Assembly: GCA_964016885.1 (NCBI GenBank) | Contig: OZ024762.1 | Span: 24,986,001 to 25,050,000, forward strand | DNA from: Eledone cirrhosa | Lineage: Eukaryota | DNA: 64,000 nucleotides | Reading direction: 5' to 3' | Shown here: in pieces, positions 13,847 to 28,944 of the stretch | Numbering within the stretch: position 1 is the first letter of the stretch | Layout of the letters: every line of letters begins with the position of its first letter | Position numbers and translations under genes: made by a program | Notes under the pieces: generated by a model | Told to the model about the DNA's origin: nothing | Seen by the model: the letters and a program-made list of their open reading frames with translations, nothing else | The model's database searches: none

Positions 13847-14285
13847 GTAGGAGGTGAGTTTTATTGTAGTACAATAAAGCAATGCAGATATCGGATAAGA
13901 AGCACTCTACAGTTTGTGGGACTGGAGTATGCATAATATAAGATTAAAAGATGGTTAAAGGAGTTTCATATATTTTATTATGCGCATTTCAAAAACAAAC
14001 ATCATCATGCAATAATATTTGTGTTTTCATCAGATAAAACAGGAGAACATGATATGAAGGCTAAAAAACACTTGTGGATAGTGCAGTTTTAAATCAACAT
14101 ATCATGATATGATATGATATGTTGATTTAAAACTGCACTATCCACAAGTGTTTTTTAGCCTTCGTATCATGTTCTCCTGTTTTATCTGATGAAAACACAA
14201 ATATTATTGCATGATGATGTTTGTTTTTGAAATGCGCATAATAAAATATATGGAACTCCTTTAACCATCTTTTAATCTTATATTA
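13847..14285. mobile_element. Family A fold-back element; hammerheads at 14178-14248 (+) and 13972-14042 (-)
   Basis: Palindrome ~13935-14285 centred ~14110, plus left tail gtaggaggtgagt...ctggagta. (TA)n on both sides. UGUUUUAU-CUGAUGA..GAAA-UGCGCA-UA^AUAAAAUA. Confidence 0.85.
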
Positions 14286-14399
14286 TATATATATATATAT
14301 ATATATATATATATATATATATATATATATATATATATATTTATATATGTACATATATATGTATGTATGTACATATATATATATATCTATATATATATA

Positions 14400-14460
14400 T
14401 AGGAATAAGTATGACCCCGACGGCAGAGCTCAAGCCGTTTCGACGGCTATTTCTGGACTA
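14400..14460 (-). mobile_element. Family B fragment (3' half of a hammerhead)
   Basis: Minus strand GAAA-CGGC-uugagcucu-GCCG-UC^GGGGUC, embedded in (TA)n. Confidence 0.6.
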
Positions 14461-14649
14461 TATATATATATATATTATATATATATATATATATACACAC
14501 ACACATACACACATATATATATATGTATGTATATACACACACACACACACACACACACACACACACACACACACACACACACACACGCGCACACACACAC
14601 ACACACACACATATATATATATATATATATATATATATAAATGTATATA

Positions 14650-15512
14650 TAGCGGCGATGAATTAGTTTTGCGAGGTTTTTTATATGAAATCGTGTGTCG
14701 AAACAAATATTGTTATACTTGGGGAGGGTAATATTTATGTAATATTGCCAGAATTAATAACAGAACACACTCACACTTTGGTTGGTTTTCGCTTCTCGCT
14801 TCTCTGTCTTTTATATCGGTAATCTAATTTATTGGGTCCTCAATGTTGCCATTGACTGACCGACGGTCAAAAATAATACAGATACAATATAGACAAAAAC
14901 ACATATATATAGTTTATCATAAATCTTTCGTTGCACATCTGCAACATCGTCAGTGGTGCTATTGTTTCCTCCCGTTGTATTATATGTCTACGCCATTTTT
15001 ATTCAGTCTGTCTATATATTTATTTATTTATTTGCTTGTTTGTTTATTTTATTTTGTCTTCTTTGCGCATGCGTTTGCGTGTGTGTATAGTGTTTTGTTT
15101 GCTGTGTGATGGGTGACTAGTGTGTGTTCATGCGCTTGTTGTTATTGTGCTTGTGTATGTATTTATTAATTAATTTATTTATCTATTTATTTATTTATTT
15201 ATATTTCTCTTAGGTCAGTGTTGTTTGTTCGGGTGTTGTTGTTATCCCATTCATTCTTTCTGTTTAATCTTGGTCTTCTAATTTCTATTTCACTGGCCTC
15301 TCTGATTTGCCTATCTGCTGGGTCATTTCTATGTTTAGATATTATTCTAATTTCTATGTTGTCTATGTTACTGTCATGTTGTTGTCTAGCATGTTCGTAT
15401 AGTACTGATCCATTTTTTCGTCCTTTTAGTTCCCCCCAGTGTTGGTCTATCCTTTCACCTAGGCTACGAGCTGTCTCACCTATGTATGTTGTTGTCATGT
15501 TTCTGCAAGTAC
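14650..15512 (-). pseudogene. Penelope-like element 3' fragment: GIY-YIG endonuclease (15199-15512), 3'UTR and family E terminus
   Basis: TCRNMTTTYIGETARSLGERIDQH...SVLYEH...RQIREASEI...LNRKNEW. The terminus 14650-14780 is related to 48885-48990 and 1645-1730. Confidence 0.85.
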
Positions 15513-15683
15513 CGTCTATATATATATATAGAAATGTTTATATATATATATATATATATATATATATATATATATATATATATATAAATGAAGTAATTCC
15601 GTCGGAAAGGTCCAGGATAAAAGAGTGCTCTATGTAGTTTACAGAGCTTATTAGTTTATGTAATAAACAACATAAGATAATTA

Positions 15684-15743
15684 TTTCATTTACCAGTGGT
15701 TTCTTGAAAGCAAACACATTTGCTTTCAATCGTCAGAATGAAA
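15684..15743 (-). ncRNA. Type I hammerhead ribozyme (family F), intact
   Basis: UUUCAUU-CUGACGA-UUGAAAGCAAA(ugug)UUUGCUUUCAA-GAAA-CCACUGG-UA^AAUGAAA. Stem I has 7 bp and stem II 11 bp. Confidence 0.88.
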
Positions 15744-16319
15744 AATTCGTGGTGTTTATTTTTTATGTGGATTTGAAAACCAAAATATAAGAAATATGAA
15801 AGTGAAGCTCAGGGAAGAAGACAAAAAAGATTATAAATATATAAGTATATAAACACACACACACACACACACACACACATATATATACATATATATAAAT
15901 ATAAACATACATACACATACACATAAATACACAAACACACACACACACATATATATATATATATATATATATATATACACACATACATACATATATATAC
16001 ACGCACATACACACACACACAATTATACAAATAAGCAAAGATGAATAAACAAACATATACACACTCGATCATGCGCATATACTAAAATAAGCAGTTACAA
16101 CAACTAGCCAAGATAAATCAGTAAAAAATAAAGTCAAATATAAAAATAAAAAATAAAAAATAAAAAATTAGCAAGTTGACAGCGATACGAAAGAAGAAAA
16201 AACACAAATAAAAATAAATAAATAAATAAACAAAAACACGTGGTAATCAAATGCACAAAATAAAATAAATATATATATATAAATATAAATATACATATAT
16301 ATATATATACATATATATA

Positions 16320-16447
16320 TTTTATTATGCGCATTTCAAAAACAAATATCATGCAATAACATATACTCCAGTCCTACAAATTGTAGAGTGCTTCTTATCC
16401 AATATCTGCATTGCTTTATTGTACTACAATAAAACTCACCTCCTACA
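16320..16447. mobile_element. Family A remnant (inverted half-hammerhead joined to tail)
   Basis: ttattatgcgcatttc followed by tactccagtcctac...actcacctcctac, in (TA)n. Confidence 0.7.
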
Positions 16448-16779
16448 TACATATATATATATATATATATTAAAATATATATGTATATATATATGTATAT
16501 ATGTGTATATGTTTATAAACAAACGGGGGAAATGGTGCGTCGGGCGATATGTGAGCATTCAGAGTGAATTAAAGTAAATATAGTTCCATATATCATCGAC
16601 TTTTAGAATCATAACTAAAGAGGTAGAGAGGCTTCATATTTTGATAATGTAGTAGAAAATAGATTCTATTAGATCTCCATTTTAATATTGGTAACTCTGT
16701 CTTGCTTAATGTATTCATGACATACATTTTTCCTATCTTTATTCAAAGAGTGAGCTCAAATGAACCTTCTTTCAGAAGC

Positions 16780-17320
16780 TAAACTCCGCCAGTTGCAGAC
16801 TGCACATCAACATGTGATATCTCTCTTCACAAAGTTCGATCACCAGTAGCAGAGTTCAAAGAGCAAAGATCAAGTCCAGTCCATGAATTGATATTGTTAA
16901 GCCATCGTTATGGCTGCCGGCCCCTGCTTCTCTAACCAGCCAACCTTCCTTCCAGGAATATATAATACCTTTCGTTCACCAACAGCAGAGTTCAAAGATC
17001 AAAGATAAAGTACAGTCCATAAGTTGACATTGTCAAGCCATCGTTTTGGTTGCCGGTCTCTGCTTCTCTTACCAGCCAAACTTCCTTCCAGCAATATATA
17101 ATTATTTTTACTTTTGGCACAAGGCCAGCAATTACCCAGTGCATTACTTTATTTTATCGACCCCGTAAGGATGAAAGGTTAACGTCGGCGGGATTTCGAT
17201 CACCAACAGCAGAGTTTAAATAGCAAAGATCAAGTCTAGTCCATGAATTCACATTGTCAAGCCATCGTTTTGGCTGCCGGCCTCTGCTTCTCTTACAAGC
17301 CAACCATCCTTCCAGACATA
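16780..17320 (-). mobile_element. Three tandem ~130 bp RTE-clade LINE 3' ends, with an intervening SINE fragment (17108-17196)
   Basis: The minus strand reads like FLEGRLAG.RSRGRQP.RWLNNINSWTGL, an RTE C-terminal motif. Confidence 0.65.
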
Positions 17321-27152: not shown

Positions 27153-27160
27153 ATATATAT

Positions 27161-27243
27161 ACCCCGGGAATCCCACCAAATCGTATGCACTCTACAACAG
27201 CATTCTAATAAAAGTGTGTATACGTTTTTTTGGACACGCTGTA
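27161..27243. mobile_element. Tiny Tc1/mariner-type MITE-like element
   Basis: Right end ...ttttttggacacgctgTA, in TA context. Shares gcattctaataaa and its end sequence with 52117-52222. Confidence 0.45.
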
Positions 27244-27327
27244 TATATATATATATATATATATATATACATACACACACACACACATATATATATATAT
27301 ATAGGAACGAGTAGGACCCCGACGGCT

Positions 27328-27527
27328 NNNNNNNNNNNNNNNNNNNNNNNNNNNNNNNNNNNNNNNNNNNNNNNNNNNNNNNNNNNNNNNNNNNNNNNNN
27401 NNNNNNNNNNNNNNNNNNNNNNNNNNNNNNNNNNNNNNNNNNNNNNNNNNNNNNNNNNNNNNNNNNNNNNNNNNNNNNNNNNNNNNNNNNNNNNNNNNNN
27501 NNNNNNNNNNNNNNNNNNNNNNNNNNN
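27328..27527. other. Assembly gap (200 N)
   Basis: Run of N beginning inside a family B arm. Confidence 0.99.
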
Positions 27528-27927
27528 TTATGAAGCTATGTTGAAGTTAAGCTTGAGAAATGTTGGAATTAAATCAAGTCAGTCAGGTGTCTTCACATGG
27601 AATCGAATATTTAGCGTATTGGCTTTCAAACGCCTCACTGGATCCTTAAGAATTCTGTTCCCTACTCGACACAATCGTTAATTCTAGAATACTAGTCACA
27701 CCAAATACAATGTAGAAGGTAATACACATTGATTTTTATATGCGTTTTCTATCTATGTGTGTATGTGTTTGTGTGTGTTTGTGTGTATGTATATGTATGT
27801 ATATGTATGTGATTATGTATATGTATATATATGTGTGCTGTGAGGATCTATGTATAGATATATGAATATGTAAATATACATATATGCAATGTATATATAT
27901 ATATATATATATATATATATATATATA

Positions 27928-28057
27928 ATAGGAACGAGTAGGACCCCGACGGCTGAGCTCAAGCCGTTTCGACGGCTAATTCTGGACATACTACCCTAAG
28001 TATTGAGTACTTTGGTGCGTTATGGTCCACCTGGTTCCTTACCACATTTCCTTCGTT
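27928..28057. mobile_element. Family B remnant (inverted half-hammerhead joined to tail)
   Basis: ggaccccgacggctgagctcaagccgtttcgacggc followed by ctaagtattgagtactttggtgcgttatggtcc. (TA)n flanks. Confidence 0.7.
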
Positions 28058-28199
28058 ATATATATATATATATATATATATATATATATATATATATATA
28101 TATATAGAATAAGTAAAAGCGAAGATATTTACTACGTCACTCCTATGTGGAAAAAGTGCGTTGAGTGCTTGAATTGAATTGCATCAATGTTTACCCTAA

Positions 28200-28412
28200 G
28201 TATATATATATATATATATAAATATGTGTGTGTATGTACAAATGTATATATATGTAAATAGATACAATCACACACACTCACTCACACACACACACATATA
28301 TATATATATATATGTGTGTGTGTGTGAGTGAGTGTGTGTGATTGTATCTATTTACATATATATACATTTGTACATACACACACATATTTATATATATATA
28401 TATATATATATA
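28200..28412. repeat. Perfect palindrome of compound microsatellite
   Basis: gtatgtacaaatg...gatacaatcacacacactcactcac mirrored around a (TA)n centre at ~28305. Confidence 0.85.
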
Positions 28413-28530
28413 TCTGTGTGTGTGTGTGTATGTATGTATATATATATATATATATATATATATATATATATATATATATATATATATATATATATATATA
28501 TATCTGTGTGTGTGTATATATATATATATA

Positions 28531-28944
28531 ATATAAGATCAAAAGATGGTTAAAGGAGTTCCATGTATTTTATTATGCGCATTTCAAAAACAAACATCAT
28601 CATGCAATAATATTTGTGTTTTCATCAGATAAAACAGGAGAACATGATATGAAGGCTAAAAAACACTTGTGGATAGTGCAGTTTGATATATTGATTTAAC
28701 ACTGCACTATCCACAAGTGTTTTTTAGCCTTCATATCATGTTCTCCTGTTTTATCTGATGAAAACACAAATATTATTGCATGATGATGTTTGTTTTTGAA
28801 ATGCGCATAATAAAATACATGGAACTCCTTTAACCATCTTTTGATCTTATATTATGTATACTCCAGTCCTACAAACTGTAGAGTGCTTCTTATCCGATAT
28901 CTGCATTGCTTTATTGTACTACAATAAAACTCACCTACTACACT
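28531..28944. mobile_element. Family A fold-back element; hammerheads at 28747-28817 (+) and mirror copy (-)
   Basis: Palindrome 28531-28852 centred ~28690, plus right tail 28853-28944. Near-identical to 13847-14285 in the opposite orientation. Confidence 0.88.

Follow-up and report, generated by a model that had tools for sequence, protein, structure and literature searches.

Lopsided palindromes in (TA)n runs of an Eledone cirrhosa contig are inverted 3′ ends of Penelope-like retrotransposons

Results

The palindromes are PLE termini

The lopsided palindromes of this 64 000-nt stretch of Eledone cirrhosa DNA (the window) are head-to-head inverted 3′ ends (pseudo-LTRs, pLTRs) of Penelope-like retrotransposons (PLEs), a known PLE insertion footprint with TA repeats as the target. 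On sequence grounds, families A−D most likely belong to the Hydra clade, whose named members were compared by motif only. The whole analysis covers this one window and six published consensus sequences compared by eye. The basic signature of the inserts is already known: inverted pLTRs, a tail at one end, (TA)n targeting and, in vitro, nicking of both strands and two internal reverse transcriptase (RT) start sites have been published. The initial annotation, in which both strands of a nicked (TA)n target prime reverse transcription at two defined sites and the cDNAs join head-to-head, was thus largely anticipated. In the literature searched we found neither tails of 52−87 nt (against 30−40), nor a description of a hairpin opening the tail, nor junction evidence against fold-back and against a single amplified MITE.

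A hammerhead ribozyme descriptor matched the window 15 times, against 0.25 ± 0.52 matches in 100 shuffles, and 12 of the 15 fall in families A, C and D; family B shows the 3′ half only (by eye). Where both arms of an insert carry a match (five inserts), the motifs face outward in every case. Hallmarks of endonuclease-positive (EN+) PLEs are present: a sense-strand hammerhead motif in the pLTR, as predicted from sequence, an inverted 5′-truncated copy at the 5′ end and a tail at one end only (15 of 16 two-arm inserts; longer than published tails). Insertion into (TA)n, a mark of the Hydra clade, is seen at the 3′ flanks. Rfam at gathering thresholds gave no match in the window, and its E-value run returned microRNA-precursor and similar hairpin noise, with no hammerhead among the 150 of 558 matches listed. 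An initial inverted-repeat scan of the window was dominated by (TA)n. No partial tandem pLTR-ORF-pLTR of families A−D was found in the window; we infer this arrangement from the published Hydra-1_Ajap consensus, which begins with the hairpin described below. Non-LTR retrozymes, which are head-to-tail tandem repeats with a type-I hammerhead in each (10.64898/2026.07.22.740005), were rejected as candidates: no such repeats were seen, and all paired motifs lie on opposite strands.

Table 1. Inserts and related features in the window (positions from its first letter).
Feature	Position	Strand	Description
A1	13847..14285		head-to-head family-A 3′ ends; long arm (−), tail 13847−13934; short arm (+) to about 14283
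A1 hammerheads	13974−14038; 14181−14245	−; +	descriptor
A1 tail hairpin	13904..13928	−	ACTC / 3-bp stem / loop / 2-nt bulge / GAGT
A2	28531..28944		short arm (−) 28532−28684; long arm (+) 28685−28944; tail 28855−28944; hairpin 28860−28884
A2 hammerheads	28569−28633; 28750−28814	−; +	descriptor
A3	13372..13695		older subfamily; short arm (−), long arm (+) with 80-nt tail
A4	16315..16446		arms non-overlapping; short-arm piece (−) joined to tail only (+, from +3)
A5	21374..21540	+	family-A 3′ end; hammerhead 21437−21500; 91% to A3, 83% to A2
Inverted tail fragment	18320..18374	−	A3 subfamily (template +28..+80); 96% to A3, 85% to A2
Hydra-type RT + C-terminal endonuclease ORF	18388..20166	+	5′-truncated, decayed (stops, frameshifts); tblastn with relatives, translation motifs
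B1	45579..45766		long arm (−), 77-nt tail, hairpin 45628−45651; short arm (+)
B2	47509..47702		long arm (−) with tail, hairpin 47558−47581; short arm (+)
B3	14400..14459	−	solo short arm in (TA)n
B4	27927..28056		arms non-overlapping; short arm (−) joined to tail only (+, from +10)
C1	18139..18305		short arm (−), long arm (+); internal deletion of long arm takes out hairpin
C2	45822..45960	+	solo long arm; hammerhead 45828−45876, hairpin 45894−45912
D1	1750..2200		long arm (−), 83-nt tail, hairpin 1813−1832; short arm (+); centre a 1-nt loop
D2	34758..35142		long arm (−) with tail, hairpin 34810−34829; short arm (+)
E1	53712−54111		family-E palindrome; both arms end at short site; within larger symmetric palindrome
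G1	48886..49233		long arm (−) with 56-nt tail, short arm (+); without hairpin motif
G2	1646..1728		non-overlapping; tail piece (−, from +9) and short arm (+)
H1	58547..59075		long arm (−) with 58-nt tail; short arm (+); hammerhead 58845−58885 in unpaired centre
H2	48455..48790		short arm (−), long arm (+) with 52-nt tail
L1 (window family)	15588..15745	−	solo long arm; hammerhead 15686−15741, hairpin 15627−15647 in GCTC/GAGC form
Solo Hydra-type copy	57843..58530	+	5′-truncated, in (TA)n; endonuclease fragment 57843−58211, 3′ UTR

Ends are fixed and copies independent

All seven inserts cited in the initial annotation have the anatomy described there, with arms matching at 88−100%: in each family the short arm meets (TA)n at a fixed point, and the long arm extends 80−92 nt beyond it to a second fixed end, which also adjoins a dinucleotide run ((CA)n instead of (TA)n in A3). 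BLAST of the family long arms against the window placed 3′ ends in two classes, at template position ~0 (site 1) and at the tail end (site 2). Tails measure 80−87 nt in family A, 83 in D, 77 in B, 61 in C, 56 in G and 52−58 in H. Of the 16 inserts that have two arms and belong to multi-copy families, 15 pair a short with a long arm (five in A, three in B, one in C and two each in D, G and H), with a chance probability of 0.5^15 = 3e-5, or 2.6e-4 if the exception is counted (by hand). Families C and E were first described as showing the same pattern with shorter tails; C1 pairs a short with a long arm, and both arms of E1 end at the short site. The A3 short arm halts at the palindromic helix III of the ribozyme, and that of A4 has an alternative end at −34, that is 34 nt earlier, in a different TA-rich spot. 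Seven arms are solo (B3, C2, C3, G3, L1, E0 and 57843−58530), and a gap or the edge of the window truncates two inserts.

Insertions were independent events with fixed ends, as had been proposed: 23 variants are copy-specific and none arm-specific (375 columns). This tells against the reading of each family as one palindromic MITE-like non-autonomous element, formed once and amplified, with centres that differ by later deletions; only pervasive arm-to-arm gene conversion would rescue it. Centres do differ between copies, as first noted, but they cluster within families (in family B, those arms that begin upstream of site 1 do so at −45 to −63; in family C the range is about −52 to −62), as the MITE-like reading would have it; palindromes delete readily, and TA flanks resemble Tc1/mariner targets. 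However, the ends are asymmetric and lack a terminal inverted repeat, some arms are solo, one copy bears an ORF, and the same founding event would be required in at least six families. We consider this origin highly improbable. A MITE or class II fold-back element was likewise rejected, with neither symmetric terminal inverted repeats nor a single palindromic master found.

The short-arm end is TA-containing, as claimed, and 1−8 nt of alternating TA are common to arm and flank in 12 copies, but the effect is modest (on average 3.25 nt, where random breakpoints give 1.40; p = 0.047−0.14 in the sum test). Priming by TA homology is only weakly favoured, and the element studied by Frangieh et al. 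(2024, PMC11167929) initiates without homology.

Arm geometry argues against simple fold-back

In a different account, a single priming event at the tail end starts one cDNA, which then folds onto itself (or onto an antisense template) and is copied in the opposite direction as far as site 1; there, endonuclease cleavage or TA annealing resolves the structure. This resembles the self-priming idea of Arkhipova et al. (2013, PMC3846280) and the ‘EN-mediated resolution’ of Craig et al. (2021, PMC8557442). Fold-back directly accounts for strict short+long pairing and near-identical arms, for the palindromic centre of A1 and equal arms of C1, for the few perfect hairpin centres (D1, with its 1-nt loop), which fit self-priming, and for A2, A3 and B2, where the long arm reaches further 5′. 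It needs the short arm to be a subset of the long arm, however, and this fails in 7 of 15 inserts, where the short arm reaches further 5′ (by 18 nt in B1); the long arm does so in three, three are equal or unclear and two unknown. Simple fold-back would not give short arms that so often reach further 5′, nor the four inserts whose arms have little or no template in common. In three of these four the tail arm halts no more than 10 nt from site 1 (P = 0.03 under the null); the G2 junction shows microhomology (by eye), compatible with an original junction or a later deletion. Fold-back also fits poorly with the solo short arm B3, with two published consensus sequences that end at the short site and with the ORF-bearing insert described below, whose short-ended arm spans 3 kb against 54 nt for its tail arm. 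Overall we judge it unlikely.

Inverted duplication of a solo PLE 3′ end after insertion, by replication template switching at TA microhomologies, or an assembly artefact, could be suggested by a 2.5-kb symmetric palindrome with mirrored microsatellites (52829−55395) and an assembly gap that begins directly after a family-B arm. Template switching shares the subset prediction of fold-back, which fails, and fixed family-specific ends and 0−12% arm divergence are unexpected for read artefacts; we give these explanations very little credence.

One insert carries an RT-endonuclease gene

The 3.2-kb insert 18320−21540 connects family A with a decayed Hydra-type RT-endonuclease gene and keeps the asymmetry of short end and tail. 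Both of its ends derive from the A3 subfamily: the tail fragment has (TA)n at its left and the shortened ORF at its right, and A5, which ends at the short site within (TA)n, can be read as the 3′ end of the insert. Between 18374 and 21530, TA runs reach 9 nt at most. The link of family A to the ORF is one of adjacency only, across an 860-nt UTR and a SINE dimer, and families B, C and D have no ORF in the window.

In tblastn with relatives as queries the RT part of the ORF was matched at E 1e-35 to 1e-51, and 18388−20157 aligns over the RT and GIY-YIG-type endonuclease of relatives of 420−720 aa. Pfam gave nothing relevant for eight window ORF pieces or four relatives. A CxCx5C linker precedes the endonuclease in the translation near 19765; relatives P0111 and P0140 showed no such pattern. 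Both endonuclease fragments (by eye) and both relatives scanned have CxxC and CxH around the conserved E and N, with no CCHH. Of those two relatives both have DKT and one has RWK, motifs that map upstream of the truncation of the window ORF. The window ORFs differ in sequence from Hydra-1_Obim (by eye). A homologue search with the 57843−58208 fragment of the solo copy found none at longer or near lengths, while an exhaustive search gave 3981 relatives. That copy has a hairpin at 58471−58490 and, near 58370, a motif resembling a hammerhead that was recognised by eye but not by the descriptor.

A hairpin opens many tails

In A1 the tail hairpin begins 4 nt beyond the short-arm end point. By eye, a tail hairpin is present in four of six published Hydra consensus sequences (supplement of PMC8557442); in three of the six, the sequence after the hammerhead runs through a TA-rich stretch and the hairpin and ends with a short tail, while two stop at TATA(T) soon after the hammerhead. 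One of these two, Hydra-1_Ajap, opens with the hairpin upstream of the ORF. Penelope-13_HM looks symmetric by its ribozyme positions. Folding energy is weak (z −2.8 to +0.35 in six tails), with only the window family L1 standing out (z −2.8). The minimum-energy structure contains the hairpin in D1, B2 and L1, and part of it in C2, A2 and the 58471 copy; the hairpin is missing from 7 of 19 tails (families G, H, J, K, X and E), and a MAFFT alignment did not bring the hairpins into register. A coding role for the tail was rejected: an open frame runs through it, in one frame in A1, A2 and A3 and in other frames without clear likeness in D1 and B2, but this is probably chance, and in one published consensus the hairpin lies upstream of the ATG.

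A model of insertion

The reading that we favour, with somewhat better than even confidence, is that both nicked (TA)n strands prime, one at each site and possibly on one RNA (~15 informative copies). Two-site priming with head-to-head joining fits geometry, outward ribozymes, variant counts and non-overlapping arms, although the initial annotation missed the PLE identity. The inserts would be 5′-truncated insertions of (TA)n-targeting PLEs. Their template would be a tandem or read-through RNA holding ORF, 3′ UTR, hammerhead, TA-rich site 1, hairpin, 40−63 nt and site 2, the tail being the beginning of the next repeat unit. The RT-endonuclease would nick both strands of the symmetric (TA)n; one 3′-OH would begin cDNA at site 1, 0−10 nt 5′ of the hairpin, possibly aided by some bases of TA homology, and the other at site 2. 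Synthesis of both cDNAs would usually terminate early, in many cases within ribozyme stems; once their 3′ ends had been joined and filled in, the product would be an antisense arm followed by a sense arm, the element 3′ ends facing outward. Short+long pairing would be the rule if both primers used one RNA, each site once, or a fixed asymmetric dimer; on one RNA, RT from site 2 would halt near site 1 or displace the other cDNA. Simultaneous priming, the joining step, the number of RNAs and any role of the hairpin are features of the model; nicking of both strands and two internal starts were demonstrated in vitro for a PLE of another clade (PMC11167929).

Several points weigh against two-primer insertion. 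Non-overlap and further-reaching short arms could come from later deletions in unstable palindromes; the centre of D1 and the near-equal arms of A1 and C1 exceed what two independent stops would be expected to give; E1 is short+short and the Penelope-13_HM consensus looks symmetric; TA homology is weak in the sum test, and the hairpin, where present, is thermodynamically weak; and the start site in PMC11167929 is alike on both strands.

More tentatively, Hydra-clade PLEs might use hard-wired twin priming on a single RNA, with the hairpin placing a dimeric RT-endonuclease. One (TA)n strand would prime just 5′ of the hairpin and the other 40−63 nt 3′ of it, the downstream RT colliding with or displacing the first cDNA, and the hairpin would be conserved across coral, sea cucumber and copepod elements and the window families. 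If true, one rule would cover the PLE tail, its presence at one end and head-to-head inverted pLTRs.

Short inserts of this sort are abundant, and counts of their junctions distinguish fold-back from two-primer models; the hairpin is a candidate cis element, and two start sites are named for an unstudied clade. In genomes of this kind, many of the short palindromes found in (TA)n runs are PLE termini instead of MITEs or microRNA precursors, and these palindromic termini break assemblies.

Comparison with known systems

In the part of Craig et al. (PMC8557442) available to us, Hydra-clade EN+ PLEs have a C-terminal endonuclease without CCHH, a CxCx5C linker, CxxC and CxH around conserved E and N, a 3′-end hammerhead, (TA)n targets and, in one family, an inverted 5′-truncated copy; the Octopus member Hydra-1_Obim is listed. 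The same endonuclease motifs, hammerhead, target and inverted copy are seen in the window, but PLE tails are given there as 30−40 bp. The words hairpin, stem-loop and twin are absent from its main text, and the short+long rule was not found in the part available. It leaves open the origin of PLE tandem and inverted structures and of the tail, a question partly answered in vitro with the Poseidon element PAc of Anolis (PMC11167929). There, nicking and extension take place on both target strands, the spacing of two internal RT start sites corresponds to the genomic tail, and a stem-loop lies at the start site, with a predicted dimer and a hammerhead upstream. Unlike the window families, PAc belongs to another clade, has start sites inside the ORF start, initiates without target homology and uses an ATT target; the main text does not connect the pair of start sites with the pair of arms in inverted insertions, on which supplementary figures may bear.

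Penelope of Adineta vaga (PMC3846280) has inverted pLTRs, an optional tail on one, and palindromes at the inverted junction, mostly head-to-head; it differs in its 31-bp tail, its discernible TSDs and its explanation by self-priming on an antisense template. Published hammerheads, in the portions of those reports available, share with ours a long helix II and a short palindromic helix III. Dual motifs on opposite strands 100−700 bp apart, described in the same portions, are probably inserts like those in the window; their ends and asymmetry are not addressed in those portions.

The four non-overlapping inserts match twin priming in the L1 retrotransposon, in which each of the two nicked target strands primes a cDNA on the same RNA and the cDNAs are joined to give an inversion, with a variable second site and segments without overlap. 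The window inserts differ from L1 in that both sites are fixed and the arms usually overlap into a palindrome.

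Paired arms with two fixed ends

The initial annotation described seven inserts in which one arm (the short arm) meets (TA)n at a constant internal position, site 1, and the other (the long arm) carries on through a tail to another fixed end, site 2. All seven match this description, with arms that are 88–100% complementary and a long arm running 80–92 nt further. To avoid hand-picked examples, each family's long arm was searched against the whole window; arm 3′ ends lay at about 0 (template position of site 1) or at the tail end. Within the window, 15 of 16 two-arm inserts from multi-copy families consisted of one short and one long arm (five in A, three in B, two each in D, G and H, and one in C). 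The chance of this under independent choice is 3e-5 for 15/15, or 2.6e-4 (hand calculation) including the exception. The count excludes seven solo arms and two inserts interrupted by a gap or by the edge of the window. It also excludes four single-copy palindromes, of which J, K and X are asymmetric with one end outside (TA)n, and S is symmetric. The short arm of X ends in (GA)n and that of K in unique sequence. The sole exception, insert E1 (53712–54111), is short+short and lies within a 2.5-kb symmetric palindrome; the short+long pattern had been annotated, with shorter tails, for families C and E, and it holds for the single two-arm C insert but not for E1. In A4, a family A copy, the short arm stops 34 nt early.

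Fold-back centres had been said to differ between copies. They do vary, yet they cluster within families B and C. In these two families the 5′ truncation points are clustered in or just before ribozyme stems, which suggests structure-induced stops of reverse transcriptase (RT) or short non-autonomous templates. At 27301–27526, one family B short arm leads directly into an assembly gap of 200 N, which would be expected if such palindromes break assembly.

A hairpin at the start of the tails

The tails of families A–D open, 0–10 nt past site 1, with a hairpin framed by ACTC and GAGT; between them come a 3-bp stem, a loop and then a 2-nt bulge. A strict descriptor gave 10 matches against 1.3 and a relaxed one 13 against 3.1 (maximum 8 of 200), with 11 of the 13 lying in tails and the other 2 elsewhere; these ratios are inflated because the motif was first noticed in these same tails. 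Given the outer motif alone, 11 of the 12 tails have a fully paired inner stem, and several stem sequences occur among them. The folding energy is unremarkable, and the motif is missing from 7 of 19 tails (G, H, J, K, X and E).

As an independent check, we compared by eye the six new consensi of Hydra, an EN+ clade of Penelope-like elements (PLEs), in PMC8557442; four contain the hairpin. In Hydra-2_Amil, Hydra-2_Ajap and Hydra-1_Crog (one mismatch), the ribozyme is followed by a TA-rich stretch and then a GCTC/GAGC hairpin. Hydra-1_Ajap has TATATT at its end and two hairpin copies at its start, upstream of the ORF. No hairpin was seen in the consensi of Hydra-1_Amil or Hydra-1_Obim, the latter ending at TATA. 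From this placement, we read the tail as the beginning of the following tandem unit. The main text of PMC8557442 mentions no hairpin or stem-loop, and our literature search, with most subscription papers and Repbase reports outside its reach, found no description of the tail hairpin.

Ribozymes and the link to a protein

A type-I hammerhead descriptor matched 15 times in the window, compared with 0.25 ± 0.52 (maximum 2) in 100 block-wise dinucleotide shuffles. Twelve matches belong to families A, C and D and have a long helix II, and helix III in A and D is a 6-nt palindrome; PLE pseudo-LTR (pLTR) hammerheads likewise have both features (PMC4209133). In all five inserts with two matches, the left match lies on the minus strand and the right match on the plus strand, so the element 3′ ends point outward. 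The descriptor had no match in family B (where the 3′ half alone is present), A3, C1 or the copy at 57843, and an Rfam scan of the window had no hammerhead among the matches listed. By eye, palindrome J has a ribozyme-like core carrying a U3–A8 change.

Family A is tied to an RT–endonuclease ORF through adjacency, short of proof. Both ends of the ORF-bearing insert (18320–21540) originate from the A3 subfamily (left end 96% to A3 and 85% to A2, right end 91% and 83%), and the sequence between them has no TA run longer than 9 nt. A second copy (57843–58530) comprises an endonuclease fragment, UTR and a tail ending in (TA)n; this fragment has 3981 relatives at E ≤ 0.001. Long relatives align with both window ORFs and contain DKT, RLINP, DVTMG, YRDD, CxxC..E and N..E..CxH, with RWK in one of two scanned; CxCx5C is seen in the window ORF and absent from the two relatives scanned. 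Motifs of this set characterise the Hydra clade, in which almost every family targets (TA)n (PMC8557442). Family A would belong to Hydra on its motifs, and B–D on hairpin and target. The inserts behave like PLE insertions and show the testable PLE features; the Hydra assignment is confined to A–D, leaving out G, H and the single-copy families.

Between RT and endonuclease, the Hydra-type ORF at 18388–20166 has an asparagine-rich stretch (19520–19760) resembling the N-rich inserts described for PMC3846280 elements. A 16-nt direct duplication (18370–18400) at the 5′ truncation point of the ORF-bearing insert, adjoining the inverted tail piece, may be the trace of an RT template jump.

Features of the ORF-bearing insert and neighbouring repeats
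Feature	Position	Strand	Remarks
Inverted family A tail piece	18320–18374		left end of ORF-bearing insert, preceded by (TA)n
Decayed RT–endonuclease ORF	18388–20166	+	right of inverted tail piece
AT-rich UTR	between 20166 (ORF end) and 21374		inserted SINE dimer
Family A ribozyme end	21374–21540		halts at site 1, then (TA)n
Single-copy asymmetric palindromes K, J, X	12672–13348, 32887–33420, 48135–48438		extensions 51–77 nt
Symmetric palindrome around E1	52829–55395		~2.5 kb; 915 matches, 77 mismatches
Symmetric palindrome	32417–32765		350 nt; (TA)n both sides
Decayed PLE ORFs of another type	40000–42527, 15199–15537	−	DKG motif, CCHH-type endonuclease (by eye)
Repeats flanking the 40000–42527 ORF	38925–39067, 42769–42980		opposite orientation, facing each other
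One SINE family, copies and tandems	2933–3580, 5489–5678, 20691–21102, 31291–31407, 49361–49457, 55377–55605		presumably an octopus SINE
Decayed LINE remnants	4223–5452, 8775–11960, 23075–26865		endonuclease- and RT-like frames

Judging by the SINE family, the host is probably an octopus. The palindrome around E1 includes mirrored copies of interrupted microsatellites and of a 160-nt element (53290–53452 / 54400–54570), and resembles either an inverted duplication at the DNA level or a fold-back insert of much greater length. The 350-nt palindrome, in which the tail is absent and the hammerhead descriptor has no match, may be a true MITE or else a fold-back derived from a SINE.

Two primers or fold-back

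Amplification of a single palindrome was rejected: in four copy pairs (375 columns), 23 columns distinguish one copy from the other in both arms, and no column sets short arms apart from long ones. Priming of two strands at two fixed sites is fairly likely. Under simple fold-back, every short arm should be contained in its long arm. Instead, it is the short arm that extends further 5′ in 7 of 15 inserts (long arm 3, equal or unclear 3, unknown 2; hand tally, with D2 mixed because a duplicated piece sits at its centre), and in four (A4, B4, G2 and the ORF copy) the arms do not overlap. These junctions fit two primers, and one RNA carrying each site once fits best. In three of the four non-overlapping inserts, the tail arm ends ≤10 nt from site 1 (null P 0.03, n = 4, post hoc). 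Later deletions can yield the same patterns. The perfect hairpin at the centre of D1 counts against two primers and for fold-back with resolution, which we nonetheless consider unlikely; the symmetry of E1, and that of the published Penelope-13_HM judging by ribozyme positions (PMC8557442 supplement), also count against two primers.

Of the two-site priming with head-to-head joining of cDNAs proposed initially, the two fixed ends are borne out, and the junctions fit two primers. The accompanying TA homology at site 1 is less clear, averaging 3.25 nt in 12 copies versus 1.40 (sum test p 0.047–0.14); with a cut-off of 2 nt, chosen post hoc, it is found at 7–8 of 9 sites versus 0.26 (p 0.002–0.0001).

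Comparison with published systems

The asymmetric palindromes are a real feature of an already known structure class, and both halves of the model that the initial annotation rebuilt from junctions are already in print. The longer tail, shared hairpin, near-strict short+long pairing and junction evidence against fold-back may be new, and make an openly stated question testable. L1 twin priming offers one comparison. For PLEs, PMC3846280 describes inverted pLTRs with an optional tail on one, invoking self-priming for head-to-head palindromes, and PMC4209133 reports dual ribozymes on opposite strands, 100–700 bp apart. The retrozymes of a recent preprint (10.64898/2026.07.22.740005) form head-to-tail arrays, unlike the inserts in the window. 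In PMC11167929, experiments with a purified PLE protein showed that both strands are nicked and extended, and that two internal RT starts, made without target homology, bound the tail.
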